Origin: a virus | Direction: 5' to 3' (one strand) | Length of the DNA stretch: 64,000 nt | Virus record (IMG/VR): IMGVR_UViG_3300032236_001645 | Coordinates: 1 to 64,000 of that record | Shown: piece after piece, positions 10,080-56,217 of the stretch | Numbering within the stretch: position 1 is the first letter of the stretch | Layout: the number at the start of each line of letters is the position of its first letter | Position numbers and translations under genes: made by a program | Notes under the pieces: model-generated | Database searches by the model: none | Told to the model about the DNA's origin: nothing | What the model saw: the letters and a program-made list of their open reading frames with translations, nothing else

Positions 10080-10982
10080 TTATAATGGACATGCTGTGGC
10101 TACTCCTGATGAATTTGCAACTACACTTGGGCTTGGTGTTCCGTCTAAGATAAATTTTTTCCAATAGAATCCACCACCACCTCCGACTCTAGCTTTAACC
10201 CAAAATTGTTGGTTATCACTAAAATATGAAAGTAATTCAGATGGTAAGTTAATAATTGCAGAAGCATTTTGTATGTTACTACCGTAAATTATTAATGTAT
10301 AAAATTGTGATAAATCAACATCTCCACCATTACATGCATCATCTCCACTTACTGTACTAACAATTGCATTCACAACAGTACCAGTCAATGGTGTTGGTGT
10401 TGGACATATTGTGTGAGCGTCGTATTTTCTTCCTTCACTATCACTAACATAATAAACAGTATTATAATCAGATGAATAATAATAAATTATATGTGAATTA
10501 GAACCAGGTGCTGGTGTTAATAAAGTTGAATCCGTATAAATTTGTTTTCCATCATATCCAAAACTAGGTATTGTAGGTGGATTAGGAGTTTGATAATAGT
10601 ATGTTTGTGTGGCACCAGTACATGCATTTCCAACTGTGGTACCACTTGATAATAATATTGAACTTACTCCCGCAGCACCACTCGGTGTTGGTGTCATAGT
10701 TGGTGTTACAGTTGGTGTTTGTGTTAGTGCTGGTACACCTTGGAATTGTACTATTTTATAAGTTCCGTTGCAAGCTCCTGTATTTGCGTTTATTTTAATA
10801 TATTGAGTACCATCAGGTATGATATTAGTTTGATATCCTGAAACTAAACTATCTTTAGTAACATTTGTTTCAAAGGCAGTACCACTACATGAACTATTAC
10901 TTGACGTACTACAAGAATACAAATCAAAAGTTGTCATATTTGATGCTACCGATGTTAATGTTATTGTTCCTGATAAAGACAT
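10080..10982 (-). CDS. virion accessory/fibre protein with TPT linker and two Cys-bracketed modules
   Basis: Its C-terminal modules are paralogous to the C-terminus of 11015-15634. Confidence 0.6.
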   Translation of the reverse strand: MSLSGTITLTSVASNMTTFDLYSCSTSSNSSCSGTAFETNVTKDSLVSGYQTNIIPDGTQYIKINANTGACNGTYKIVQFQGVPALTQTPTVTPTMTPTPSGAAGVSSILLSSGTTVGNACTGATQTYYYQTPNPPTIPSFGYDGKQIYTDSTLLTPAPGSNSHIIYYYSSDYNTVYYVSDSEGRKYDAHTICPTPTPLTGTVVNAIVSTVSGDDACNGGDVDLSQFYTLIIYGSNIQNASAIINLPSELLSYFSDNQQFWVKARVGGGGGFYWKKFILDGTPSPSVVANSSGVATACPL

Positions 10983-11014: not shown

Positions 11015-14000
11015 TTAGCAAGTACCACAATTTTGATAATCAATTAATGGTGATGCTGTCTGTCCTGTACCTGGCGTTCCATCTAATTGGAATTTTCTCC
11101 ATATTATTCCTGTTTGTTTAGTACCTTGTCTAACATAAAATACTTCATTATCACTCAAATTTGACATCACAGTTGTTGGTATGTCAAATAAACTTGTTGC
11201 GTCTTTTAAAGATGAACCATAAACAGTTACTTGTTGTCCTGTGTATTCTGGATTACAACATACTGTATCTCCTGAGTCATCTATAGTTAAATCTATCGCA
11301 ACAGTTATTGATGCTGTTGCTGGTGTTGGTGTTGGACATACATAAGAAGATTGATGATATAGACGTCCATCGCTACCATTTATATAATAGATTGTATTTC
11401 CATCCACATAATAATAGTAAATTCCATAACTATTTGAACCTGGAGCTTCATTTTGTAATCCATTATCCGCCCATAATATTGTTCCATTTGTTAAACTTCC
11501 TTGATAATAGAATGGATGAGTGTCTCCATTATCACCATTCGTACATGCAATAGGTATTGTATGTCCTGTTGCCATATAAATCGTTGTAAAGTTGAGTGTA
11601 ACCGAAGGTGTTGGTGTAACTGTTTGAGTTTGTGTCGGTAAAGGTGGAGGTACCGCATTACAATCTGCCCATTCAGACAAGTAACCTGTTGAATCAATAT
11701 ATGCAACATATAATACTGTAGAACCTGAACCATTTATTATAATAGCGCAATATTTTCCAGGTCCTGTTACTTTAGTGTTATCACCTAAAGTATGTGTAGT
11801 ATATAATTGATATGATGTGTTAAAATCAAAAGACGAGTCATCAATCCAACCACCATTAGATGTATATCCTGAAGTACTAAGTTCTGAAGGATCTTTCCCA
11901 CACGCTTGTGCAATAACTTGAGATGACGTCATACTACTACCTGATGGTATCCAAAAACTGATTGATTTTGTTCTATAAGTTGGTGGTGTATACTGTCCTG
12001 CCGGAGTATCCGCACAACTATTGTATCCTCTTGTGTTTTTATTACCTGGTATTGTTCCTCCTTGATCTGTTATACTATAGTTTATAACTTGATAAAAACC
12101 AGTTAATTCGCCTGAGCCTGAATCAAATATATCACCGACTTTACATTCTGATTGTAAATATCTATTCATTGTCCATCCTGTATTTGTACCAGGAGGTGTT
12201 GCGGTACCACACATTTGTAATTGCAAATAATATTTGGGTAAAGGTGTTGGTGTTTGGGTTTGTGTTGATGTAACTGTAGTTGTAGGTGTAGGTGTACTAC
12301 CATTTGTACTATCAGGAGTACTCGCTGGTGTTCCTGTTACTGTTGGGGTTGGGGTTTGTGTAACAAATGGTACTGCACTATAAACCGCATTACCATCTAA
12401 TGAACATGCATATGTTGGTGTTGGTGTAGTGGTAGGTGTAACCGTGGTTGTTGGTGTAAGTGTAGGTGTTTGACTTGGTGTTTGGGTTTGTGTTTGAGTT
12501 TGAGTTGGTGTTTGAGTTTGAGTTTGAGTTGGTGTCACAGTAGTTGTAGGTGTAGGTGTTGGAGTTGCGTCAAGAGCAATTGCGCCATATCCAACTTTAA
12601 ATTCAAAAGACTCCATAACACTACAACTATGTAAACTATATTTGTAAGATTTAAATCTAACATATTCATTGTTATCAGTATTACCTGTAAATGGTAAAAA
12701 TTCACAAGAAAGTCTTGGTAAACTTATTGTGGTTGTAGTTGTACTACCTGATGTTGAATAACCAACATAATTTGTATTACCTGTATAAGGAAAATAATGA
12801 TTTATATAATTTACTGTATCAATAATTGCTCTTTTCCATAATTTTCTTAATTCTGTATAATCAGGATTAAAATTATTATTTGTTCCATTACCATCATATA
12901 ATTTTGCACTTATATTTGGGTTTGTTGTTTTACCACTTAACAATGCATAAGTAATACCTGTATAACCTTGAAATGCTTCGTAGTTTTCAGGATCGAATAA
13001 TTTATTTTGTGATAACGTTGGTGTTGGAACCGGATTATTATAGAATGATATTAAATTTGTTACATTTGTTGAATTAGCAAAATAAGGAGCATTATATCCG
13101 TATTCAGTATTAACTGGTATAGGTATAAAAATAGGATCAGTCGATCCCGAATATGTTACACCATCAATTACAAATACAGGAAAAAATTGTAAATAACCAT
13201 CATAATTTAAATCATTGTCACTATTAAAATAATCTTGGAATTGAAAAATTTCTTCTTGAAAATGATGATTTCCTTCATGTGGTGTTGGGAAAGCCGGTTC
13301 TAAAATATCAAAAACTTGACATTGTTTTCTATATCTATATTTTGATCTATGAAATAAACCATTTTCAATCAAATTACCACCTGTCCATAAAGTTGTTGCA
13401 GGAATGAATTGCTCAATTACTTTAACCCAATAAGGACTCATTTTTTCTATGAATTCATTTACTTTTAAAAAATCATATGGTGTTGCAACGTTAGAAACAT
13501 AATCTTGATAAACTTTTTCTAAATCAATATATGTGTTTTTATATTTTACTAAATTAGATTGTTTAATTGATTCACTTAATGCTACATCCAAATATTCCGC
13601 AAAAGTGTATCCTGTTTGTGGAATTAATGTTCCGAAAGATAAACTTAAATTTCTTGATTGTCTGTATATATCATAATCTATTGCTCTTGAAGCTGAAAGA
13701 TATATACTAATATTTTTTCTATTTAATGTTAATTTTTCTAAACCTTCATTAGTTGTAACACTAACTTTTTCATTATCTATTCTAGATGATAAATCAAATC
13801 CATAATCTAATCCAGATAATTTTCTAAAACTATCAAAATATTCTTCTCCGTATGTAAATGTTTTTGGTTTAGTTTTGATTGTTTTTGTTTTACCTGTAAG
13901 TACTGAATTTTCAGTGTCAATTATATCAGAAGATCTATGATCGGTTGTCATTTCATACCAACCAGCACCTTTTTGAAAATAAATGTCATCTTTTGTATTG

Positions 14001-16591: not shown

Positions 16592-17128
16592 TTATTGTTT
16601 TTTAACTTTAAAATATCCATTTCCATATATATCCAATTCTCCCGTATTTTCAATCTCACCCAATTTAAAGTTTCTTTCCATAACCCCTAATTTTCCTCTG
16701 TTTACAAAAACATCTGAATATATTTGTGGTTGTTCTACAAATCCTAAAAAATGTTCATTTCTTGTTAACATATAATTTATTACTTCTTCCTTAGTAAAAC
16801 CTGTTGTAGAACCACTTATAATTGTTGTTCCATCGGATAAATCATAATATTGTAAAACAGTAGAACCTGTAGTATTGTGTGTATATGTGAATGTATAACC
16901 TGTTGTATTTAAACCCTCAATAACAGGATGTGTTAAGGTTTGTGTATATCCAGTGGAACCGTACTTTTTTAATTCCGACAATCTACTACTTCCTAATCCT
17001 CTATAATTTAAAGATGTGTAACCCGTTGGTGGATTATATTCATAATCATTCAAATAACTTTGATTACCAGTTGTGTTGGTATAGGGTATAGTAAATCCTG
17101 AAATTGTTCCAAAGTAATGGGTTGACAT
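16592..17128 (-). CDS. structural protein rich in [ST]GxT
   Basis: ORF with upstream TATTTAT motif; seven [ST]GxT motifs in 178 aa. Confidence 0.55.
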   Translation of the reverse strand: MSTHYFGTISGFTIPYTNTTGNQSYLNDYEYNPPTGYTSLNYRGLGSSRLSELKKYGSTGYTQTLTHPVIEGLNTTGYTFTYTHNTTGSTVLQYYDLSDGTTIISGSTTGFTKEEVINYMLTRNEHFLGFVEQPQIYSDVFVNRGKLGVMERNFKLGEIENTGELDIYGNGYFKVKKQ

Positions 17129-17217: not shown

Positions 17218-18105
17218 TTAACTATTATTTATGAAATATGCCCTTACGTATTTATTTGCGGTATTTGAAACATTACTTGTTGAAACCGATAATTTCAGTG
17301 TCCATAATCCTCGATGAATACCTATTGAATTATTTGGTAAATAATCAAATATTTTTGTATAATGTTGATTAGATGGATTTGATGGTGTACCATCTACTCC
17401 TGAGAAATTACCCGAATTACTTCTATCAAATGTGATCTGCATTTGATCGGTATATGTTGTTGTTGTACCTGTACCTCCCGTTACATAAGTAACACCTGTT
17501 AAACTTAATGTTGCGGTTACTGTATCTCCTGAAGCAGAATTAAGAAAATTAGTGTTAAATGCTCTTAATACAATTGCTGGTGGCATAAAATAACCTTGAG
17601 AATCAATTGAACTAACTTGACTAATATCTTGGTGAGTATATGCAGTGTAATTTAAACCTGAACCGGTATAACCTGATGCCACAGATGTAAATGAACCATC
17701 TCCATTTATAACTGCAACTTGTGAAGGTATAACTGATGTTACTTCACCGTATACTTCAGTTGTACACATTCCTGATGTTGTAATTTGAATAGCACCAACA
17801 CCATTTACCGCTGACACTGGATAATTTTGTCCATTAAAATTAGAATAACTTAAATTGTTAGTATAATTTTGAGAATACAAATTATCATATAATCCATATG
17901 TCCATGTTATGTAATTATCATTTCCCGCACCACCATAAATTACATCATATCCAGTACTATCCCAAACTGAATATGAAGTATTACCTGTATATATTAAATT
18001 TTTTCCTGAAGAATTGTATGATAGTAAGTTTACCTTAAATGCACTTGTGTTTAAGTTTGTCATTAATGTATTATTACTAAAATTCAAGTATAAATCTCTA
18101 GCCAT
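17218..18105 (-). CDS. S/T/G/N-rich putative virion accessory protein
   Basis: Beta-rich composition; TATTTAT motif upstream. Confidence 0.5.
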   Translation of the reverse strand: MARDLYLNFSNNTLMTNLNTSAFKVNLLSYNSSGKNLIYTGNTSYSVWDSTGYDVIYGGAGNDNYITWTYGLYDNLYSQNYTNNLSYSNFNGQNYPVSAVNGVGAIQITTSGMCTTEVYGEVTSVIPSQVAVINGDGSFTSVASGYTGSGLNYTAYTHQDISQVSSIDSQGYFMPPAIVLRAFNTNFLNSASGDTVTATLSLTGVTYVTGGTGTTTTYTDQMQITFDRSNSGNFSGVDGTPSNPSNQHYTKIFDYLPNNSIGIHRGLWTLKLSVSTSNVSNTANKYVRAYFINNS

Positions 18106-18166: not shown

Positions 18167-21100
18167 TTAACAATGTGCTATTAGTGTAAATAATCCATTT
18201 GAATCAAATGTACCATAGTTTGTTTTATCTGACCACCTTGCAGCGGCAGGACCTGTGAACGGTGTCACACCATCAGATTGATAATAGTTTTTACCGTTTA
18301 TTAATGTATTCACTCCAAGATATGCATAAACTACACTGTATGCAGTTGGGTTATTACTACATGCAATTGTACTTGTAGAACCACCTTGAATTGTGAAGCT
18401 GGTTAAAGGACATACTATTTGATATTCTATTGTTTGTGCTGTACAACCATTACTATCAATTACATATAACCAATAGTAACCACAACTTAATCCTGTTACT
18501 GTTACATAGTTATTACTAGCAAGGTTACTAGTTACACCTGTTGTGAATACTTGATTATCAGTTGGGTAATCATTATATGGTGTTGCATTATCCTTATACA
18601 ACTTCATAGTTCTTGTACCTGAACCACCAGAACATGTAATTCTTAATGAACCATTTCCACCCGCACCTGTTTCGTTAACAACTTGATCTATGTAACCATA
18701 TAATGCGTCAGGTGATGTAATTGTTTGTGAGTATGATTGAACACAACCTGAACTATCTTTAATATAGATTGTGTAATTACCCATAGATAAACTACTAAAT
18801 GTCTTAGGTAAAGCATAGTAAGTTGAATTATCTGTAGATGCACTATATCCTGAACCTGAACCACCTGAACCACCACTTACTGCGATACTACCATTATTAC
18901 TTGTAGCACAAGTTATATTTGTAACTGATATTGTTGCATTTGGTGCTGTTACCGCAAATGTAGTTGAAGAAGATGTTGCAGTACAACCATTACTATCTTT
19001 AACTGTAACACTATAAGTACCATTACCTAAACCTGTAAATGAATTACTTGATTGGTATGTTCCACCATTTAATGAATATGTATAACCACCAGTTCCGCCA
19101 CCCGCAGTTGCTGTAACACTACCATTAGTACCGTTATAACATGTAGGTGCCGTTCCTGAAATTGAACTTGTAACCTGTGTTCTTGCAAGGTTTCCAACTG
19201 AAACTGACACAACAGTTCCATTTCTACCACTATTTCTTACATAACCTGTATATGTTCCACCTGCTAATGAACTGAACGTTGCACTTGACTGCCAGTTTAC
19301 ATTATCTTTAGAATATTCATATGCCGCACCATTACCACCACTTGCACTTAATGTAAATGCTGCAGTTGTATCACCATAACATGTTTGTATTGTTGAACTT
19401 GCTACTGACAATGATAATGCAGGTAACGAAGGTGTTTGTGTCTGTGTTGCCGTTTGTGACGGTGTAATATTTGGTGTTGGTGTTTGAGTCGTTGTTTGAG
19501 TTGGGGTAGGTGTTTGTGTAACACAAGGAGTACATAAACCATTTAATGTTGCGGTAGTTCCTGATACCGATTTTGTTGCACTTCTATAACTTCCGTTTAG
19601 AGCAATATAAAAATTACCAATTGGTACTGTTACAATATTTGTTGAAGATATTGACGTCGCATCACATAAACTAATGCCACCCGTTAAAGTTACTTTACCT
19701 AATTGTATACCATTATAACAAGCACTGTACGCATCTGCACCCCAAGTATATGGAGGTTGTGTTGGTGTCGGCGTTTGTGTCATAGTTGGTGTAACACTTG
19801 GTGTTTGAGTTTGTGTTGGCGTTTGAGTTTGCGTACCCGTTTGAGTTTGAGTTTGAGTTGGTGTAATAGTATTTGTTGGTGTTACTGTTTGTGTTTGAGT
19901 TGGTGTAATAGTATTTGTTGGTGTTACTGATGGTGTTGATGTAACAGTTTGTGTGATAGTTGTGGTTGGTGTAATAGTATTTGTTGGCGTAACAGTATTT
20001 GTTGGTGTTACTGTTTGAGTCGGAGTTTGAGTTTGAGTTGCAGTCACCGATGGAGTAATTGTATTTGTTGGTGTAACTGTTTGTGTTGGCGTTGGACTTG
20101 GAGCTAACACGCTTACATTGATTCCAAAGAAACACTGGATTGTTGGGGTTGGTGTTTGTGTTGTGGTAGGAGTTACTGTAGTAGTTGGTGTAATTGTATT
20201 CGTAGGTGTAACTGTTGGTGTAACAGTCTTTGTCGGTGTTTGCGTTTGTGTTGATGTTGGCGTTTGGGTAGTTGTTGGTGTGATAGTGTTTGTAGCGGTA
20301 ATTGTTTGTGTAATAGTTGTGGTAGGTGTAATAGTATTTGTTGGTGTAACAGTATTTGTTGGTGTTTGTGTATTTGTAGGTGTAATAGTATTTGTTGGTG
20401 TAACTGATGGAGTTATAGTGTTTGTTGCTGTAACTGTTTGTGTTGGTGTTGGGCTTGGTGCCAATACAGATACGTTGATTCCGAAGAAACATTGGATCGT
20501 AGGAGTAGGTGTTTGCGTTGTTGTCGGTGTAACCGTTGTTGTAGGTGTAACTGTTTGAGTTGGTGTTACAGTAGGTGTACTTGTTCTTGTTTGTGTATTT
20601 GTTGGTGTAACTGTTGTCGTTGGTGTAACAGTTTGTGTAATAGTTGTTGTAGGTGTAATAGTATTTGTTGGCGTTATTGTATTTGTAGGCGTTTGAGTAG
20701 TTGTTGGTGTAATAGTCTGTGTCGCTGTTACTGATGGAGTAATTGTATTTGTTGGAGTAATAGTTTGTGTTGGAGTTGGTGATGGGGCAAGTACCGAAAC
20801 GTTTATACCAAAGAAACATTGAATTGTTGGAGTTGGTGTTTGCGTCGTTGTTGGTGTAACGGTAGTCGTAGGTGTTATAGTATTTGTTGGTGTAACAGTT
20901 GGTGTAATTGTGGTAGTAGGTGTGATTGTATTTGTCGGAGTAACGCTTGGTGTTGACGTATTTGTTGCAGTAATTGTTTGTGTTGGAGTAATAGTAGTTG
21001 TTGGTGTAATAGTTTGTGTTGCTGTTACTGATGGTGTAATAGTATTTGTTGGGGTTATAGTTTGAGTTGGTGTCGGACTTGGAGCAAGTACTGAAACATT

Positions 21101-24100
21101 AATACCAAAGAAGCACTGTATAGTCGGAGTCGGCGTTTGTGTCGTAGTAGGTGTAACAGTTGTAGTTGGTGTAATAGTATTTGTTGGGGTGACAGTTGGC
21201 GTATGAGTCGTAGTTGGTGTAACCGTTGTTGTAGGTGTAACTGTTTGTGTTGGTGTCACAGTTGTAGTTGGCGTAACAGTACTTGTTGGTGTAATTGTTT
21301 GTGATGCTGTTACTGATGGTGTAATAGTATTTGTTGGCGTAACCGTATTTGTTGGCGTAGGTGATGGTGCGAGAACAGAAACATTTATTCCAAAGAAACA
21401 CTGAATTGTTGGTGTTGGCGTTTGTGTTGCAGTTGAAGTAACCGTGGTTGTCGGTGTGATAGTTGTAGTTGGAGTAACAGTCTGTGTATGTGTTGTAGTA
21501 GGTGTAACCGTAGTTGTTGGTGTTACAGTTTGGGTGGAAGTTACTGTTGTTGTTGGGGTAACTGTTGTAGTTGGAGTAATAGTGTTCGTTGGAGTTACAG
21601 TTGGGGTAACTGTGGTTGTCGGTGTAATAGTTGTAGTTGGAGTAGGGCTTGGTGCCAACACACTCACATTGATTCCGAAGAAACATTGGATAGTAGGTGT
21701 TGGTGTTTGCGTGGTAGTTGGTGTAACAGTCGTTGTTGGTGTAATTGTATATGTTGGGGTTACAGTAGGTGTAATAGTATTTGTTGGTGTAACCGTATTT
21801 GTTGGTGTAGGTGAAGGTGCCAATACGCTTACATCTATACCAAAGAAACACTGTATGGTTGGTGTAGGTGTTTGGGTAGTCGTTGGTGTAACAGTTGTAG
21901 TTGGTGTAATTGTTGTTGTCGGTGTAACTGTTTGTGTTTGAGTTGTAGTTGGCGTAACTGTTTGTGTTTGAGTAACAGTTGGTGTTTGAGTTGGAGTTTC
22001 TGTGTTTGATGGTGTAACAGTTTGGGTAGGTGTTGGTGAAGGTGCAAGAACAGATACATTGATTCCGAAGAAACATTGGATTGTAGGTGTAGGTGTTTGC
22101 GTCGTTGTTGGAGTAACGGTAGTGGTTGGTGTAATAGTAGTAGTAGGAGTAACTGTAGTAGTTGGTGTAACTGTTGGGGTTACTGTTGGTGTTAAAGTTG
22201 TAGTTGGAGTTTGTGTAGGTGTTTCCGTATTTGATGGTGTTATCGTTTGCGTTGGTGTAGGGCTTGGAGCTAGTACACTTACATCTATACCAAAGTAACA
22301 CTGAATAGTCGGAGTTGGCGTTTGTGTGGTAGTTGGCGTAACGGTAGTAGTTGGTGTAATAGTAGTGGTTGGAGTAACTGTTGGAGTTTGTGTAACAGTC
22401 GGCGTTTGAGTTGGTGTCTCCGTATTTGAAGGTGTAATAGTTTGTGTTGGAGTAGGTGATGGGGCAAGTACTGATACGTCAATACCAAAGAAACATTGAA
22501 TTGTTGGTGTTGGCGTTTGAGTCGTGGTAGTTGTTGGTGTTATTGTATTCGTAGGCGTCACAGTTGGGGTAACCGGTGGTGTGGATGTTACTGTTTGAGT
22601 CGGAGTTGGTGACGGAGCAAGAACCGATACATTTATACCAAAGAAACATTGAATTGTTGGTGTTGGTGTCTGTGTTGCAGTTGTAGTTGGTGTAATAGTT
22701 GTAGTAGGTGTTACACTTGGAGTAACCGGTGGAGTGGATGTTGTGGTTGTTGTAGGTGTTGGTGATGGTGCAAGTACTGATACGTCAATACCAAAATAAC
22801 ATTGAACTGTTGGTGTTGGCGTTTGAGTTGAAGTTACTGTTGGTGTAATCGTAGTAGTAGGTGTTACCGTAGGTGTTGGTGGCATAGTACTAGTGACAGT
22901 TGGCGTTGGAGTTGAAGTAGGTGCCAATACACTTACATTGATTCCGAAGAAGCATTGAATTGTAGGTGTAGGTGTTTGAGTAGCGGTAGGAGATGGTGTT
23001 GGTGGCATAGTACCGGTAACAGTAGGTGTTGGGGTAGTTGTTGGTGCCAAAACACTTACATCAATACCAAAGAAACATTGAATTGTTGGAGTTGGTGTCT
23101 GTGTAGTGGTTGATGTAACACTAGGGGTTACTGTTGTTGTTGATGTAACACTCGGAGTAACTGTTTGTGTATTTGTATTTGTTGGTGTATTTGTATTTGT
23201 TGGTGTAACAGTCGTTGTTGGTGTAACTGTGGGTGTTTCAGTCGGATTTGGAGTACCTGTATTAGTTGATGTAACACTTGGAGTAATTGTATTGGTAGGT
23301 GTTAAAGTTGGTGTTGATGTATTTGTTACCGTAGCAGTTTGAGTTGTAGTTGGCGTTTGTGTAACAGTTGGAGTGATAGTTGTAGTTGCTGTAACTGTTT
23401 GTGTCAGTGTTTGAGTTTGCGTATTAGTAGGTGTAACTGTTGTTGTTGATGTAACAGTTGGTGTTTGTGTAAGAGTTTGGGTAGGTGTTACTGTAGCAGT
23501 AACTGTATTTGTTGGTGTTACAGTTGTGGTAGAAGTTGGTGTTTGTGTTGGTGGTAATGTTTGTGTTGGTGTGGTAGTTGGTGTTTGAGATATAACAAAA
23601 ACATCATCAATATCATCATACCATATAATTTCATAAGAATTACCAGATGCTGCAGGTGTTGGTAAATTAAATGTAAATGACTCATTTAAATAATCAACTA
23701 CATTTCCACCATAAGGTATTAATCTTGTGGTGTTGTTATATTTTGTATCAATAAGTGAACCATTTTTCCATAATTCAACTCTAGTTGTATGTACATAAAC
23801 AGAATATAAATTATCATTATGATACATTATTCTTTGTGCACTTATTGTTGTTTGTCCAACACACACATCACTATTAACATAGTCTGATGTAAAATACCAT
23901 GGTGCTGGTGGTTCATTACTATCATTTGTAACTAAATCTGAAAGTAATGCCGATGGACACGTAGAGTCCAAATATGATTTAACAGTTGGTACATAAACAT
24001 TAATACCACCAGATTTTACATTATTAAGTTGTTCATATGTAATCTTAACTTCAAGTGAAGTTTTAGTTGTTGTAGGTGTAACTGTAGCGGTAACAGTTGG

Positions 24101-24853
24101 TGTTGGTGTATATGATGCGGTATTTGATGGTGTTAAAGGTATATACGTTGACGTTGGTGTTGTTGTAATAGTAGTGGTTGGTGTTACAGTAGGTGTAACC
24201 GTAACAGTCGGTGTGATAGAAGGTGTAACTGTTGGTTGTACTCCACATAAATTAACAACTTTTAAAACTTGATTACTTATGTATGGTGAATCTAATAATA
24301 TGTTGATTATTTTTTCACCAGGTGTTGAATAATATTTAGTTGTTGAACCATTAAGTGTTATTCCTGACGATGTACCATCTCCCCAATTAATAGTAAAGAC
24401 AGGTGATATATCAGGATTTGCATTAATTTTATCAACGACTTGATACGTTGTTGTATTATAAATTGTAATTGTATCACACGTGGCAGTATACATGAAGTTT
24501 GCTGTGATGTAATTGTGTTCAATTTTACCATCAAAATCAACCATTATACCTTGTTCATCAACTTTTGATTCTAAATAAACTGGTATTTGATAATCGCCAT
24601 AAACTTTTTGTTTTACATCTCCTGAAATTTGTTCCCAAAAATCACCAGTATATTTGTAATAACCTTCAACTAAACTTCCTGTAACATTTGTATTATATAT
24701 AATTGAACCTGTATCAGGTGCACATAAATTTACCGAACCTGAAAACCATGGAACTAAACTACCTGATGAATCTAACCAAGAATGGGCATTAGTTGATACT
24801 AACGAACCCGTCAGTATATTTTTCTGCCTAATTGAATATCTTGTTTTTTTCAC
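18167..24853 (-). CDS. giant mucin-like virion adhesin/fibre (PKD-like N-terminus, ~1300-aa Thr/Pro region with 14 conserved peptides, SprB-like repeats, Cys modules)
   Basis: FTINWGDG PKD-like motif; TCYNGTNGSVTATAGGGTGGYTYSLNG...FTGLGNGTYSVTVKDSNGC SprB-type repeats. Confidence 0.75.
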   Translation of the reverse strand: MKKTRYSIRQKNILTGSLVSTNAHSWLDSSGSLVPWFSGSVNLCAPDTGSIIYNTNVTGSLVEGYYKYTGDFWEQISGDVKQKVYGDYQIPVYLESKVDEQGIMVDFDGKIEHNYITANFMYTATCDTITIYNTTTYQVVDKINANPDISPVFTINWGDGTSSGITLNGSTTKYYSTPGEKIINILLDSPYISNQVLKVVNLCGVQPTVTPSITPTVTVTPTVTPTTTITTTPTSTYIPLTPSNTASYTPTPTVTATVTPTTTKTSLEVKITYEQLNNVKSGGINVYVPTVKSYLDSTCPSALLSDLVTNDSNEPPAPWYFTSDYVNSDVCVGQTTISAQRIMYHNDNLYSVYVHTTRVELWKNGSLIDTKYNNTTRLIPYGGNVVDYLNESFTFNLPTPAASGNSYEIIWYDDIDDVFVISQTPTTTPTQTLPPTQTPTSTTTVTPTNTVTATVTPTQTLTQTPTVTSTTTVTPTNTQTQTLTQTVTATTTITPTVTQTPTTTQTATVTNTSTPTLTPTNTITPSVTSTNTGTPNPTETPTVTPTTTVTPTNTNTPTNTNTQTVTPSVTSTTTVTPSVTSTTTQTPTPTIQCFFGIDVSVLAPTTTPTPTVTGTMPPTPSPTATQTPTPTIQCFFGINVSVLAPTSTPTPTVTSTMPPTPTVTPTTTITPTVTSTQTPTPTVQCYFGIDVSVLAPSPTPTTTTTSTPPVTPSVTPTTTITPTTTATQTPTPTIQCFFGINVSVLAPSPTPTQTVTSTPPVTPTVTPTNTITPTTTTTQTPTPTIQCFFGIDVSVLAPSPTPTQTITPSNTETPTQTPTVTQTPTVTPTTTITPTTTVTPTTTQTPTPTIQCYFGIDVSVLAPSPTPTQTITPSNTETPTQTPTTTLTPTVTPTVTPTTTVTPTTTITPTTTVTPTTTQTPTPTIQCFFGINVSVLAPSPTPTQTVTPSNTETPTQTPTVTQTQTVTPTTTQTQTVTPTTTITPTTTVTPTTTQTPTPTIQCFFGIDVSVLAPSPTPTNTVTPTNTITPTVTPTYTITPTTTVTPTTTQTPTPTIQCFFGINVSVLAPSPTPTTTITPTTTVTPTVTPTNTITPTTTVTPTTTVTSTQTVTPTTTVTPTTTHTQTVTPTTTITPTTTVTSTATQTPTPTIQCFFGINVSVLAPSPTPTNTVTPTNTITPSVTASQTITPTSTVTPTTTVTPTQTVTPTTTVTPTTTHTPTVTPTNTITPTTTVTPTTTQTPTPTIQCFFGINVSVLAPSPTPTQTITPTNTITPSVTATQTITPTTTITPTQTITATNTSTPSVTPTNTITPTTTITPTVTPTNTITPTTTVTPTTTQTPTPTIQCFFGINVSVLAPSPTPTQTITPTNTITPSVTATQTITPTTTQTPTNTITPTNTITPTTTITQTVTPTTTVTPTNTQTRTSTPTVTPTQTVTPTTTVTPTTTQTPTPTIQCFFGINVSVLAPSPTPTQTVTATNTITPSVTPTNTITPTNTQTPTNTVTPTNTITPTTTITQTITATNTITPTTTQTPTSTQTQTPTKTVTPTVTPTNTITPTTTVTPTTTQTPTPTIQCFFGINVSVLAPSPTPTQTVTPTNTITPSVTATQTQTPTQTVTPTNTVTPTNTITPTTTITQTVTSTPSVTPTNTITPTQTQTVTPTNTITPTQTQTQTGTQTQTPTQTQTPSVTPTMTQTPTPTQPPYTWGADAYSACYNGIQLGKVTLTGGISLCDATSISSTNIVTVPIGNFYIALNGSYRSATKSVSGTTATLNGLCTPCVTQTPTPTQTTTQTPTPNITPSQTATQTQTPSLPALSLSVASSTIQTCYGDTTAAFTLSASGGNGAAYEYSKDNVNWQSSATFSSLAGGTYTGYVRNSGRNGTVVSVSVGNLARTQVTSSISGTAPTCYNGTNGSVTATAGGGTGGYTYSLNGGTYQSSNSFTGLGNGTYSVTVKDSNGCTATSSSTTFAVTAPNATISVTNITCATSNNGSIAVSGGSGGSGSGYSASTDNSTYYALPKTFSSLSMGNYTIYIKDSSGCVQSYSQTITSPDALYGYIDQVVNETGAGGNGSLRITCSGGSGTRTMKLYKDNATPYNDYPTDNQVFTTGVTSNLASNNYVTVTGLSCGYYWLYVIDSNGCTAQTIEYQIVCPLTSFTIQGGSTSTIACSNNPTAYSVVYAYLGVNTLINGKNYYQSDGVTPFTGPAAARWSDKTNYGTFDSNGLFTLIAHC
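19750..23590 (-). repeat. low-complexity Thr/Pro coding repeat with 14 copies of QC(F/Y)FGI(N/D)VSVLAP
   Basis: Copies near 20100, 20460, 20785, 21080, 21366, 21651, 21817, 22040, 22265, 22461, 22611, 22767, 22921, 23043. Confidence 0.95.
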
Positions 24854-32517: not shown

Positions 32518-34350
32518 TTAGTATGTAGTCGTTCCTAATGATTTGGTTCTCACTAAAATATCAATATTCGGGAATCTAATTTGAAAAATTTGATTTGACT
32601 TCATATAAATGATATGATCCGATTGTTGTATTTCTTTTGTTGTACTATCAACATATGGCATCACCGTTTCTGCGGACGAATATAATCCACCTATTTTATT
32701 GTAAACTCTAATATCTACCACATTAACGACACCAGGTATTGCTCCAATTGAATGGATTAAATCTCCAATAAACAATGGATCTCCCATTTTTCTTTTTGTC
32801 ACATCAAAAAATTGAGTTGCTCCACTTATTGTTGATTTTATAACATCTGTTGGTTTTTCGTTTTTGTCAATAACCAAATCAATCTGTAATGATAAGTCTA
32901 TTACCTCTCCTGTTGCAATATCAATATAATCATTAATCATTCTAAACTCAGAAAGATATTCTACAATATTACTAGCCAAAGTATTAGAAACCGTATCAGT
33001 TAAATTACCTTGATCGTCATAGGATAAAATTTTAATTCTAACTTTATTATCTTCTTCCATGACGTTAACTTTTGCGGGCGCACCATATGTACCTGGCATT
33101 GTTTCAATTAATGATTTATAATCATTTAAAGTAACCGCTCTATCTTGTGCCGCAAAATTATAAGAAATCATATTTCTTAATTCTTCAATACTAGGTTGAT
33201 CAGAACCACCTATTGCTGGTGTAACATTTACAACTCTTAAAGATTGTATAGTTTGTGTGTTCAAATTACTAACAGGACCGTTAACATTGAACTCAACATT
33301 CTCTACGCTGTTAATCACATTAACACCTAAGTTACTATCTTTACCACCACCAACTCTATATTTTACAAACAATGTTGAATTACTCTTTGGTATTGCACCC
33401 AATGATGTATTATTAAGATAACTTGCCAAATTTACTTTCAAAGAATCTGTCATGTAGTTGTCTAAATTACTCATCGGATCAACATTACCTGAACCAAATG
33501 TTAATGAAATATAACCTTCAGGTGTGTATTCAGTTACAAACTTATTTGTAACATTCATATATGTTCCTGATTTAAAATTATTTCTATCAGATACTGAAGT
33601 TGGATCCGGTACAAAAACTTTATCTTGAATTAATGAATTTACTTCGTACCATTTATTTGTGGAACTCGCAAATTCTGAAGATGTTGGATTCGCACCATAG
33701 TTTGTACCATCTTTATGTATAACAGTTGTAACTCCTAAAACATCTTGTTCAGGTAGATATAATTTTAAAAATGGTTTCTGATCTAAATCTGTAATTACTC
33801 TTCTGTATATTCTTGTAACACCATTAACAACCGCTTCTCTTTTAGTAATTGTATATGATACTAATGTATTTGTTGCATCAAAATTTGGTATTTTTAATCT
33901 ATTTGGTTCACCTTTACTATTAAATGGATTTGAAAAATCAATATCCTCTACTGTTTCAAAAACTTGTCCGCCACCTGAAACTTGTGCTCCCGCTTTTAAT
34001 ATACCCAAATATCTTTCATCTTCCTTATCACCTCTTGGTATTACATTTATTGAAAAATCACATAATGCAACTGAAGGACGATTACCTGGTATTTTCATAC
34101 CATAGGTTTTTGCAATATGAAATAAAGATTGTCTTTGTTGAGCAAAATCTAAAATTGTTTCTTGCCAAACTCTATCAATATGGAAGTGTAAGTTATCCGC
34201 AACCGCAGCATTTAAATCTAACAATACTGAATAAATTGAGGCGTCATTTGTATTCTTGATTAAATCAGGGTAATATTGTGTTGTTAAATTAACTAACTCT
34301 TGTCTAAGTCCCGCAAAGTCTCTTGTTGCGTATGATATTTTTTTACTCAT
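32518..34350 (-). CDS. baseplate wedge subunit (T4 gp6 / baseplate J-like)
   Basis: RDFAGLRQEL, AQQRQSLFHIAKTYG, FGSG, YRVGGG, GGSD...AQDRAVTLNDY. Confidence 0.88.
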   Translation of the reverse strand: MSKKISYATRDFAGLRQELVNLTTQYYPDLIKNTNDASIYSVLLDLNAAVADNLHFHIDRVWQETILDFAQQRQSLFHIAKTYGMKIPGNRPSVALCDFSINVIPRGDKEDERYLGILKAGAQVSGGGQVFETVEDIDFSNPFNSKGEPNRLKIPNFDATNTLVSYTITKREAVVNGVTRIYRRVITDLDQKPFLKLYLPEQDVLGVTTVIHKDGTNYGANPTSSEFASSTNKWYEVNSLIQDKVFVPDPTSVSDRNNFKSGTYMNVTNKFVTEYTPEGYISLTFGSGNVDPMSNLDNYMTDSLKVNLASYLNNTSLGAIPKSNSTLFVKYRVGGGKDSNLGVNVINSVENVEFNVNGPVSNLNTQTIQSLRVVNVTPAIGGSDQPSIEELRNMISYNFAAQDRAVTLNDYKSLIETMPGTYGAPAKVNVMEEDNKVRIKILSYDDQGNLTDTVSNTLASNIVEYLSEFRMINDYIDIATGEVIDLSLQIDLVIDKNEKPTDVIKSTISGATQFFDVTKRKMGDPLFIGDLIHSIGAIPGVVNVVDIRVYNKIGGLYSSAETVMPYVDSTTKEIQQSDHIIYMKSNQIFQIRFPNIDILVRTKSLGTTTY

Positions 34351-34351
34351 T

Positions 34352-34804
34352 TTAAATGTTTAAGATTACAAAATCCGAAGATGTAAATGCTCCGTTATTG
34401 ACATTATATTCTATTTTTACAACTGCAGTATATGGTTTAGCGGAATTATCTGAAATTCTAAAAAGTCGATTATCCTCATTTTCCGCAGGTGATCTAAATT
34501 GTGACGGATCATCTTCGGCAGACATTATATTAATTGATGTAATATCTAAATTAGGAATGTATTTTTTAACCGATTCTCTAATTTCACTTTCAATTAAACC
34601 ATAGGTTACCGCATCATTCTGATCAAAAATAAATTGATATAATCTAGTTCCAAAATCAGGTAAAAAGTACCTACTTCCTTTTCTTGTTAATAACAAGTGG
34701 ATTAAATTTGCTCTAATCTCTCTTTCGGGAGTTGGAGTCATTTTTAGAAATTTACCTTCTAAACTGTCACTAAACGGAAAATCTACACCGTATGATACTG
34801 CCAT
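34352..34804 (-). CDS. baseplate wedge gp25-like protein
   Basis: NLIHLLLTRKGSRYFLPDFGTRLYQFIFD motif. Confidence 0.9.
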   Translation of the reverse strand: MAVSYGVDFPFSDSLEGKFLKMTPTPEREIRANLIHLLLTRKGSRYFLPDFGTRLYQFIFDQNDAVTYGLIESEIRESVKKYIPNLDITSINIMSAEDDPSQFRSPAENEDNRLFRISDNSAKPYTAVVKIEYNVNNGAFTSSDFVILNI

Positions 34805-54312: not shown

Positions 54313-56217
54313 TTATTTTTTTGGTGGACTTGTATATTCACCCAAATTTCTTTCCGCCCATTTATCAAACACATGTGTATTTCTTATTATATCTCTATTT
54401 AATGGTTCCATTACGTTATTTGATGTAAGTTGTATAGTATGGTTAACATTCACTGTTTGAGCCGTTTGATTTGTTGTTTGTGGTTGTTCAACAGGTTTCA
54501 AAGCCTCCATCATTTTTTCAAAATTATCATTAATGAATTTATTATTTGTTAAATCAAAAGGAGTTTTTTCTTTTGTATAATTTAACGCATCATCTTTAAA
54601 TTTTGTTAAAAATTTGGAAACATCACCATTACTTTCTTTAAAAGTATTAAGAAAATAATCTTTTGTACTTTGTGCTGTTTGCTTAACTTCTTTACCTAGA
54701 GAACCTTCTTGTAATCTATTACCGGCCTGTAGATACATTGCGGTTAAAATATCTTTAATTTGTGTAACTTCATTGTATTGTTGTCTAGCAATGTCTTCAG
54801 GTTTTTCATCCGCTAATTCTTGTTCAATTTTTGCCAATTGTTCTAATTGACTTCCGTTTAAACTATCTAACGCAACAAATCCTTGTTTTATACCACCTCC
54901 TAATTTAGCGGCAACATCTTTTGGTAAATCAATCCCAATTTTACCATCTTTCATTGTTGCAATATTTGAAACAAATTCTTTTTGTTCAGGACTAATATTT
55001 GGAAACATGTCAATTTTAGACATCGCTTCAAGTTTGTTTGCTCCTCTAACCGCCATATTTGTCAAGTCACCCACACTTACTCCTAACGCATCCGCCATTG
55101 CTCTTGCCTTTCTTAAATTAACACCAGTAATTTCAAATCTACCTTGTTCTGCATTATATGTTGCCAAACTTCTCGCAGCATCAACTAAACTTGTTTGTAA
55201 TGCCTCCACATTATTAGTCGCATCGTACATCGCTTTTAATGGATTAGCAAAATCACCTACAGCACCGCCAATTACTTGTAAATTAGCCGCCATGTCTATC
55301 GCTTTATCGGGATCAATTAATCTTTCCGCAACATCAAATGCTGATTGCATGTTAATATTTAAAGATTGAGATTCTTGTACCATTTTACCTAAACCATCAA
55401 TACCATTTTTGAATCCATAAAGATTCATTTTATCTAAATTTTTCATTAAGGTTTCACTAGCTTGTCTAGCATTTAAACCTAACGCATATGATCTATTTCC
55501 TATCCTTTCAATTGCAGCTGCGGCATCTCCCAAACCAATACCGACTCTTCTAAAATTTTCAGCATTATCTAATAAATCTCTTGATGTTTTTGTATATGCC
55601 TGTGACGCTTTAAATGCTGAATCTATGGTGTCTTTACTATATAACGCCATTCTACCTGAATCAGTCATTAAAGTTTTAGTAGCGTCTATATAATCATTTA
55701 CTGATACACCTAAGGCAACGGCTTCTGGTAAAGCTTCTCTTAATTCTTTAGCCATAGCACTACCTAAATCTCCTATCATACCTGCTTGTCCTTTAACATT
55801 CAAATTAAATTGATTGTTTAAAGACGCCATGTCCGCAAGAACTTCTGTGGCTTTTGTAACTCCAAAACTAACAAAATTCGTTAATAAAGTAATTGGATTA
55901 AGACTTAAAGTATCTGCTGCGTCTCCCATGAATTTTAATAAATCCGCCCTTATTTGATCGTTTTGTCTTGTATCAATAACAGATTTACTTAAACCACTAA
56001 TTGCATTACTAAAAATTCCTTTTGTACCCGTAGCGGCAGAAGATACCGCACCTGAAGCCATACCTGCAACTTTACTTATTGCGTTGTTTATGGTATTCAA
56101 AGCATTTGTTGCCTCAGTTGAACCCAAACCAAAACCCTTGGTTTTATCTTGGAAAAATCCTAATAATTTGTCACCCTGAGCACCTGTAAATCCACCACTA
56201 CCAAAAATTCCTTGCAT
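54313..56217 (-). CDS. tape measure protein (probable)
   Basis: Ala/Leu/Met-rich helical protein directly after tube and chaperone. Confidence 0.7.
   Translation of the reverse strand: MQGIFGSGGFTGAQGDKLLGFFQDKTKGFGLGSTEATNALNTINNAISKVAGMASGAVSSAATGTKGIFSNAISGLSKSVIDTRQNDQIRADLLKFMGDAADTLSLNPITLLTNFVSFGVTKATEVLADMASLNNQFNLNVKGQAGMIGDLGSAMAKELREALPEAVALGVSVNDYIDATKTLMTDSGRMALYSKDTIDSAFKASQAYTKTSRDLLDNAENFRRVGIGLGDAAAAIERIGNRSYALGLNARQASETLMKNLDKMNLYGFKNGIDGLGKMVQESQSLNINMQSAFDVAERLIDPDKAIDMAANLQVIGGAVGDFANPLKAMYDATNNVEALQTSLVDAARSLATYNAEQGRFEITGVNLRKARAMADALGVSVGDLTNMAVRGANKLEAMSKIDMFPNISPEQKEFVSNIATMKDGKIGIDLPKDVAAKLGGGIKQGFVALDSLNGSQLEQLAKIEQELADEKPEDIARQQYNEVTQIKDILTAMYLQAGNRLQEGSLGKEVKQTAQSTKDYFLNTFKESNGDVSKFLTKFKDDALNYTKEKTPFDLTNNKFINDNFEKMMEALKPVEQPQTTNQTAQTVNVNHTIQLTSNNVMEPLNRDIIRNTHVFDKWAERNLGEYTSPPKK

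Follow-up and report, generated by a model that had tools for sequence, protein, structure and literature searches.

The virus record IMGVR_UViG_3300032236_001645 (G000; 79,750 bp) carries within its first 64 kb, the whole 64,000-nucleotide stretch analysed here and termed the window, a minus-strand gene for a tail fibre protein of 2,228 residues (P0001). Taken as a whole, this protein belongs to a known kind, the modular phage fibres. Along its Thr/Pro-rich stalk a short, Cys-led peptide recurs 14 times almost without change, and this strand-like element on its Thr/Pro thread is named in none of the libraries and none of the literature searched. We describe the architecture of the fibre and the selection acting on the peptide, outline the family to which the peptide belongs and weigh its possible roles.

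Architecture of the fibre protein

The fibre gene is the fourth gene downstream of a baseplate J/gp6-like gene and part of a structural module encoded on one strand. The protein can be divided as follows:

18167 to 24853, minus strand: whole gene of the baseplate-module fibre protein P0001, 2,228 aa, an open frame with no internal stop
24254 to 24853, minus strand: N-terminal anchor domain, aa 1-200, common to a conserved protein of 370-378 aa in related phages
23504 to 24091, minus strand: globular insert between two Thr/Pro tracts, about aa 263-445, from the translation
19754 to 23518, minus strand: Thr/Pro stalk, aa 446-1700 (1,255 aa), defined by composition
19454 to 19786, minus strand: small Cys-containing module that follows the stalk, about aa 1700-1790, from the translation, with an equivalent position in the metagenome fragment L018
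18170 to 19381, minus strand: distal tip with SprB repeats (Pfam PF13573, three stretches)

Anchor-like domains that are 39-52% identical open 16 other proteins or loci (four loci and 12 proteins), whose stalks and tips differ or are missing altogether. Stalkless short forms are P0014, P0021-23 and L013:10004-11140. The locus thus has the conserved N-terminal anchor and the variable distal modules that characterize phage fibres. The anchor has no match in Pfam, the PDB or the phage genome collection. The globular insert matches nothing in Pfam and is not similar to the 1,064-aa protein of a related phage record in IMG/VR (G001; 67.9 kb, 22% complete); the small Cys module likewise has no Pfam match. 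The tip (aa 1825-2228) is a member of the SprB repeat family (30.9 bits against a cut-off of 28) and, over 318 aa, shares 51% identity with that of a second, 1,999-aa protein of G001; SprB repeats above the Pfam threshold are also present in P0002 and P0029.

Searches of Pfam, PHROGs and NCBIfam with the whole protein and its pieces returned only the SprB tip and phrog_15511, a family without an assigned function in PHROGs. Within P0001 the latter is confined to the first Thr/Pro tract (aa 199-274); it also matches Thr/Pro tracts of P0003, P0004 and P0017 and is probably a low-complexity match. Searches of the PDB by sequence and by profile gave nothing significant for the protein or the motif.

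The stalk consists of 44% Thr and 16% Pro and is nearly uncharged (one Lys, one Arg, four Glu, five Asp), and 84% of its Thr residues have another Thr at position i+2. Its DNA is built from sub-repeats of 18, 12 and 30 nt. All 14 Cys, all 26 Phe and all five Asp of the stalk lie inside the recurrent motifs, which are its sole hydrophobic, Pro-free runs. At 0.3 nm per residue the stalk would have a contour length of about 380 nm.

The 14 motif copies

The motif copies were called with the regular expression QC[FY]FGI[ND]VSVLAP on the translation and with the back-translated degenerate DNA pattern. The expression finds 14 exact copies between residues 592 and 1585 (window positions 20099-23080), and the DNA pattern yields 14 matches in the window, all on the minus strand, and none in 100 dinucleotide shuffles. 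These counts agree with a preliminary description of the window, which had reported 14 near-invariant copies on a Thr/Pro stalk. The repeat of 13 residues given there stands as the exact core of every copy; the conserved unit is longer and comprises 27 residues (TQTPTPT-[IV]QC..LAP-[ST][PTS]TPT). From base to tip the copies are:

Copy 1, 23042 to 23080, minus strand: QCFFGIDVSVLAP, aa 592-604
Copy 2, 22919 to 22957, minus strand: QCFFGINVSVLAP, aa 633-645
Copy 3, 22766 to 22804, minus strand: QCYFGIDVSVLAP, aa 684-696, preceded by V in place of I
Copy 4, 22613 to 22651, minus strand: QCFFGINVSVLAP, aa 735-747
Copy 5, 22460 to 22498, minus strand: QCFFGIDVSVLAP, aa 786-798
Copy 6, 22265 to 22303, minus strand: QCYFGIDVSVLAP, aa 851-863
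Copy 7, 22040 to 22078, minus strand: QCFFGINVSVLAP, aa 926-938
Copy 8, 21815 to 21853, minus strand: QCFFGIDVSVLAP, aa 1001-1013
Copy 9, 21650 to 21688, minus strand: QCFFGINVSVLAP, aa 1056-1068
Copy 10, 21365 to 21403, minus strand: QCFFGINVSVLAP, aa 1151-1163
Copy 11, 21080 to 21118, minus strand: QCFFGINVSVLAP, aa 1246-1258
Copy 12, 20783 to 20821, minus strand: QCFFGINVSVLAP, aa 1345-1357
Copy 13, 20456 to 20494, minus strand: QCFFGINVSVLAP, aa 1454-1466
Copy 14, 20099 to 20137, minus strand: QCFFGINVSVLAP, aa 1573-1585

The Asn/Asp position reads D, N, D, N, D, D, N, D, N from base to tip, followed by five N. In the 1,064-aa protein of G001 the four copies alternate as (Q,D), (L,N), (Q,D), (L,N). 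The alternation of N with D and of Q with L hints at an older super-repeat of two units.

Selection on the peptide

Whereas the 14-aa core is 94% identical across the 14 copies, its DNA is far more diverse (mean identity 77%, range 64-92%), and third positions agree at a rate of only 0.49. Each core position is encoded by two to five codons, Ser for example by AGT (4), AGC (2), TCA (3), TCG (2) and TCT (3), as the preliminary description had noted for the codons in general. Where two copies share a residue, the codon is identical at a rate of 0.476, compared to 0.535 expected from the codon usage of the gene. Calculated by the method of Nei and Gojobori (NG86), the rate of non-synonymous substitution among copies (dN) is 0.088 and that of synonymous substitution (dS) about 1.5, with dS undefined in 40 of the 91 pairs. 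The comparison of copies shows saturation at synonymous sites. Over whole repeat units DNA identity is 60-82%, and Tandem Repeats Finder matches for long periods are at 64-90%. Codon identity between the copies of the window and those of G001 (0.48-0.49, expected 0.50-0.51) is at the same level. From this saturation and a unit identity of only 60-82% it follows that, as DNA, the copies are old and that the peptide is held by selection. The earlier proposal of selection for the peptide instead of the DNA repeat, which near-identical copies in DNA were to refute, is therefore borne out by the comparison of synonymous and non-synonymous change.

The use of two to five codons at each core position rules out a conserved DNA or RNA element underlying the repeat. 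That the motif lacks a function and arose by recent slippage, or as a chance pattern of low complexity, might be suspected in a region so rich in short tandem sub-repeats of 18, 12 and 30 nt. The low unit identity, the saturated synonymous sites, the empty shuffles and the occurrence of the motif in about 20 other protein clusters rule out a recent tandem-repeat expansion and leave this explanation next to no credence.

A different picture is seen within G001. The last unit of its 1,064-aa gene (L015:8888-12082) and the first unit of its 1,999-aa gene (L015:12393-18392) are nearly identical in DNA, while the other copy pairs between the two genes are saturated; within the 1,999-aa gene, codon identity is 0.74 against 0.55 expected. 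This suggests a recent exchange between the stalks of the two genes.

A family of Cys-led strands

The hydrophobic moment of the motif peaks at 180 degrees (2.55, compared to 0.78 at 100 degrees), in line with the alternating, one-Cys β-strand proposed earlier. Judged by its residue pattern, the motif is a predicted amphipathic β-strand of 14 residues, one face of which displays Ile/Cys/Phe/Ile/Val/Val.

A search with the 41-aa unit against longer proteins returned seven proteins, all of which carry the motif or a variant in one to ten copies. A profile of 24 units, run against 1.84 billion representative proteins, gave 23 matches at E ≤ 0.001, about 20 of which were judged real; the false ones are P0038 (Olduvai domains) as well as P0031 and P0037, which contain a different repeat. 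In the latter two short proteins the sequence TDTPTPTIIAYRGISRSA occurs four to five times in a similar Thr/Pro context and is unrelated to the Cys-led strand. P0041, a fragment of 73 aa, was kept out of the statistics, and near-duplicates (P0009, P0024, P0011, P0013, P0018, P0020, P0028 and P0035) were removed before 26 proteins were compared. The remaining clusters fit the motif pattern except for P0043, the seven copies of which are visible in the alignment to the profile hidden Markov model (HMM). None of the motif-bearing clusters carries a product name, and the family was found only in proteins of uncultured phages.

The core of the family reads C-x-F-x-[IV]-x-[VLI]-x-V-[VIL] and is flanked by TPTPT. 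In 110 instances from the 26 non-redundant proteins, hydrophobic residues of low entropy occupy the odd core positions (C in 26 of 26, F in 25 of 26, then I/V, V and V), while polar and variable ones stand at the even positions (1.9-2.9 bits). Correspondingly, positions 9, 11, 13, 15, 17 and 19 of the model are hydrophobic and the even ones polar. The Cys at model position 11 is present in 145 of 155 HMM-aligned instances and in 145 of the 145 real ones; nine of the ten instances lacking it stem from the unrelated repeat of P0031 and P0037, and one is a truncated alignment. Identity between proteins of the family averages 42%, and periods range from 20-23 aa up to 119 aa.

Copy numbers are odd as often as even and have no minimum. 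The 1,064-aa and 1,999-aa proteins of G001 carry four and three copies, respectively, P0002 has five of the ordinary class, and P0008, P0013 and P0036 have a single one. The Cys residues outside the motif number six in P0008 and ten in P0036, both even. At least four N-terminal regions that are unrelated to one another lead into the motif, and the tips beyond it are of several kinds; its place is always in line between anchor and tip. The giant proteins P0029 and P0035 (2,360 and 2,420 aa) are relatives of the 1,999-aa protein of G001 and combine two to three Cys-led strands with SprB repeats; P0029, the one of the two that was scanned against Pfam, scores 72.8 bits for cadherin (PF00028) and 77.7 bits for SprB. 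Absence or lack of conservation in homologues had been named beforehand, along with a lack of self- or partner-association, as a ground against the earlier proposal; the motif is retained in G001, in P0002 and in about 20 clusters.

Within IMG/VR, the variant of the window was found only in G001. The exact degenerate DNA pattern had no match in metagenome contigs and none in genome contigs. A profile-derived scan of 185,579 prokaryote species genomes gave 42 pattern matches, none of which was confirmed; among metagenome contigs four of 76 pattern matches were confirmed, and one of these four (L019) was judged false, given its GC content of 67% and the lack of a motif-bearing frame. Pfam, NCBIfam, the PDB and the named PHROGs hold no named entry for the motif, and a full-text literature search found no paper on the Cys-led strand element. 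The sole PDB match of the motif profile is a tailspike stretch (3riq_A, residues 272-290, TIQCYYDGIDVNADTGSPT), which is close to the motif by eye and lies at chance level (E 0.32).

A second motif class, P[IV]HCELGGDATYIPP, shows the same alternation. It forms a block of five copies ahead of the five ordinary ones in P0002 and is also present in L011. A doubtful relative of this class lies elsewhere in the window:

12380 to 12412, minus strand: YACSLDGNAVY island between Thr/Pro tracts of the 11015 protein

The island agrees by eye with the second class at five of ten positions and had been put forward as a diverged single copy of the motif. An HMM of the second class (class A) does not list the 11015 open reading frame among the window's frames at E up to about 20, and the island is absent from the homologous protein of G001. 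These results lend the suggestion no support.

Graded spacing

The gaps between successive cores are 28, 38, 38, 38, 52, 62, 62, 42, 82, 82, 86, 96 and 106 aa, within the range of about 25 to 110 aa estimated previously. Expressed from Cys to Cys, the period runs from base to tip through 41, 51, 51, 51, 65, 75, 75, 55, 95, 95, 99, 109 and 119 aa, and hence widens (Kendall tau 0.89, p = 3.6e-5). The steps are mostly 10 aa and are made from the sub-repeats of 18 and 12 nt. The DNA identities of the units are similar along the gene, such that no age gradient is seen. In P0002 the period widens through the copies of both classes (tau 0.87, p = 0.001). A weak widening is seen in several further relatives, some are constant and a few reversed; these proteins are related and do not represent independent cases.

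Gene neighbourhood and phage

The genes of the window lie nearly all on the minus strand. We scanned 20 window proteins against PHROGs, ten of these also against Pfam, and ten further proteins from the rest of the record. DNA-metabolism genes were recognised in these scans, as were three genes of the contractile tail and baseplate; two further genes lie downstream of the fibre gene:

58038 to 60467, minus strand: tail sheath, from the PHROG/Pfam scan
34352 to 34804, minus strand: gp25-like wedge protein, from the PHROG/Pfam scan
32518 to 34350, minus strand: baseplate J/gp6-like protein, from the PHROG/Pfam scan
17218 to 18105, minus strand: conserved 295-aa gene directly downstream of the fibre gene; a 58% identical homologue follows the SprB-tipped gene in G001
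16592 to 17128, minus strand: 178-aa protein, the C-terminal half of an ancestral 375-aa protein; matches the C-termini of L013:10004-11140 and P0014/P0021

The position of the fibre gene on the same strand as the gp25-like, J/gp6-like and sheath genes is that of a baseplate-attached phage fibre, and the gene order around the locus is kept in G001 and L013. The phage is an uncultured jumbo phage with a contractile tail (myophage). CheckV estimates the record to be 26% complete, which points to a full genome of about 300 kb. The closest named relatives of the baseplate J protein belong to Flavobacterium phages and to an uncultured 484-kb phage (27-29% identity), and the host is probably a member of the Bacteroidota. 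A second fibre-like protein of the phage lies beyond the window (L020:9520-11802, G000 71519-73801); it comprises 760 aa and contains collagen triple-helix repeats (PF01391, 81 bits).

The 17218 product has no PHROG match and only a sub-threshold match in Pfam. Proteins of this type have 295-320 aa, a conserved GGAGNDN stretch and one conserved Cys. The gene follows an SprB-tipped fibre in three of three contexts: the window, G001 (54376-55263) and L018 (from nt 1784 onward), where the order is motif, small Cys module, SprB tip and 17218-like gene. The only other context with whole neighbours, the 1.6-kb contig L017, holds two motif-bearing genes and no 17218-like gene. In these few contexts the gene goes with the SprB tip and not with the motif, which speaks against the earlier idea that its product is the specific partner of the motif; we consider it a candidate chaperone or accessory protein of the tip.

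The 16592-17128 protein has a homologue in G001 (E 9.5e-49). In L013, P0014 and P0021-23 the anchor is fused directly to this C-terminal half, which in the window is a separate gene. An ancestral gene of the baseplate region thus appears to have been split, with stalk, tip and gene 17218 now lying between its halves. At the same place G001 has its two fibre genes, one with the anchor, four motifs and a different tip (1,064 aa), the other with three motifs and an SprB tip (1,999 aa), which are followed by the 17218 and 16592 homologues.

Comparison with known systems

Modular receptor-binding fibres of phages, such as the long and short fibres of T4 or branched tailspike complexes, share with P0001 the location in a baseplate gene block, a conserved anchor with exchangeable stalks and tips and a small conserved gene after the tip. 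They differ in the shaft, which is here a Thr/Pro thread of 1,255 aa with 14 isolated strands of 14 residues instead of a β-helix, β-spiral or coiled coil. The contiguous short repeats of a triple β-helix or β-spiral are missing, as the strands are 28-106 aa apart on a Pro-rich thread. The likeness to the SprB-repeat adhesins of Bacteroidota (PF13573) is limited to the tip and does not include the motif; the repeats are found here on a phage fibre.

Gel-forming mucins also have long, extended Pro/Thr-rich regions interrupted by Cys-containing hydrophobic elements, and with 44% Thr and 16% Pro the stalk qualifies as a Pro/Thr/Ser-rich extended region in the mucin sense. The mucin CysD element is a folded, self-associating domain of about 100 aa with many Cys residues, whereas the element described here has 13-14 aa, a single Cys and, perhaps, a capacity to self-associate. 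No glycosyltransferase family was found among the 20 window proteins and the ten others scanned, which come from a record covering 26% of the genome. Plant extensins, in which rod-like Ser-Hyp modules alternate with short Tyr cross-link motifs, come closest as an analogue of the way in which the fibre may function; they too are extended Pro-rich rods with short periodic hydrophobic motifs. A Cys/Phe strand, putatively cross-linking, takes the place of their Tyr-x-Tyr, and there is no homology between the two.

In chaperone-usher pili an N-terminal extension complements the fold of the neighbouring subunit by donating a strand. The motif resembles such donor strands, which have 10-12 residues and, on one face, about five hydrophobic side chains in alternation, but it is internal and repeated and not an N-terminal extension. 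Sequence searches gave no candidate for an acceptor lacking a strand, and chaperone or usher families were absent from the 20 window proteins (PHROGs, ten also Pfam) of the incomplete record. Mucins, extensins and pilus donor strands are the nearest analogies by function, but the fibre belongs to none of these families.

Possible roles of the strands

We tentatively favour, with somewhat less than even confidence, a role of the strands as self-associating staples, which hold the chains of the fibre in register and are possibly locked by their Cys residues. The anchor domain would fix the fibre in the baseplate and be followed by the uncharged Thr/Pro thread, the Cys module and the SprB tip. 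If the fibre is oligomeric, the same strand from each of its parallel chains would zip into a small β-sheet with a buried hydrophobic face, and, after release of the virion from the cell, a disulfide or a bound metal at the invariant Cys may lock this node. In this way loose threads would become one registered cable, stiffer at the base, where nodes are dense, and floppier towards the tip, where they are sparse.

Several observations are consistent with staples between chains. Among them are the purifying selection on the peptide, the strand pattern and invariant Cys seen throughout the family, the lack of a parity rule in copy number and the confinement of the stalk's Cys, Phe and Asp to the motifs. 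Since single-copy proteins exist, the strand must be able to do without a second copy in its own chain as pairing partner. The even number of other Cys residues in P0008 and P0036 implies that the Cys of the motif lacks a partner in cis. Furthermore, the constant in-line position behind varied N-termini and before varied tips is expected of an intrinsic part of the stalk. A number of points weigh against this role. Neither the PDB nor Pfam contains a relative of the anchor domain that would indicate an oligomeric state, and in a trimer the three Cys of a node cannot all pair. If copies pair with their own counterparts only, there is no reason for all 14 to be alike, and a common partner or mutual stacking fits this likeness better; purifying selection since duplication would also explain it. 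The two proteins of G001 share a motif variant, as a shared partner predicts, although this is more simply explained by the DNA-level exchange in one copy pair. Finally, the difference in stiffness invoked above is a speculative account of the spacing gradient, and the staples offer no other.

If there is a common partner, the stalk might be a docking rack, in which domains from another virion protein plug in at the strands, one at each, bound by donor- or edge-strand complementation and perhaps a Cys-Cys lock. Up to 14 side branches per chain would then form a branched host-recognition apparatus. We regard this as possible but rather doubtful. The five alternating hydrophobic residues on one face are those of a donor-strand design, and the near identity of the 14 copies (94%, versus 42% between proteins) is what a single common partner predicts, as is the variant shared by the two G001 proteins. 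P0002, with two motif classes in two blocks of five, looks like a rack for two types of plug. A conceivable plug is the 300-aa protein encoded at 10080-10982 of the window, which consists of a small N-terminal domain of 85 aa, a Thr/Pro linker and two Cys-bracketed modules; by our count it has seven Cys, an odd number, and one Cys of the N-terminal domain has no obvious partner. However, this protein has no significant similarity to P0034, and the small N-terminal domain of P0034 and P0008 is unmatched in G000 or G001, which are 22-26% complete. Proteins with such small N-terminal domains carry motifs themselves (P0003, P0008, P0034 and P0040). No acceptor was found, no other open reading frame of the window has a motif-like strand at E up to 10, the 17218-like gene keeps to the SprB tip instead of the motif, and a pilus-type chaperone or usher was not seen among the annotated neighbours.

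Mutual stacking within one chain, by contrast, would turn the copies into a β-sandwich or solenoid-like bead, from which the Thr/Pro spacers are looped out. Length hidden in the bead could be released or reeled in under load, and a fibre grabbing a target that moves on a gliding cell would thereby gain a reel or shock absorber. Near-identical copies suit stacking in register, with ladders of Cys, Phe and aliphatic residues on one face and of Asn, Asp and Ser on the other, and graded loops would give graded closure and release. The period of 23 aa in P0025, P0027, P0028 and P0030 equals the size of a β-helix rung, and the only PDB look-alike of the motif, if at chance level, is the tailspike stretch mentioned above. 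Such a bead is nevertheless unlikely, as some proteins have a single copy, copy number obeys neither parity nor a minimum, and loops of 28-106 aa far exceed the known turns of solenoids.

We rate it as very unlikely that the strand is a recognition or processing signal, which is read by a protease, a glycosyltransferase coating the Thr/Pro tracts or a Cys-modifying enzyme, or which marks the boundaries of modified segments. The flanks are regular (TQTPTPT before, SPTPT after), and N-V-S forms an N-x-S sequon in nine of the 14 copies. The remaining five read D-V-S, and the position is occupied by D, N, S, E or G across the family, by which N-glycosylation of the sequon was rejected. D-V-S does not fit the O-glycosylation motif of Bacteroidota either, D-(S/T)-(A/I/L/V/M/T). 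The scans of 20 window proteins and ten others of the 26% complete record returned no protease, glycosyltransferase or maturase family. If the chain were cleaved at all 14 copies, anchor and tip would come apart, which speaks against the processing site of the preliminary description and, together with the structural context, led us to reject a polyprotein cut at the motif. A multi-core precursor of ribosomally synthesized and post-translationally modified peptides was rejected too: the copies lie inside a 2,228-aa fibre, and the scanned neighbours are tail, baseplate or DNA-metabolism proteins or matched no family.

Implications for phage biology

Tail fibres decide which cells a phage finds and infects, and the shafts of known fibres are folded rods. 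The fibre described here is an uncharged, mucin-like thread of up to about 380 nm, in which a short and strongly selected peptide is the only ordered element. About 20 protein clusters contain this element; they come from uncultured giant phages, which probably infect Bacteroidota. If the strands are staples, they would show how little it takes to gather disordered chains into a cable. If they serve in docking, a new assembly principle for branched phage adhesins would emerge: as sockets or plugs, 14 per chain, they would make the thread the scaffold of a many-branched tree of swappable adhesins, with a branch density graded from base to tip. We deem such a tree conceivable, if somewhat unlikely; were it true, the host-recognition organ of the phage would be built in an undescribed way. 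In either case, the 13-residue peptide could serve as a small self-associating or docking tag.

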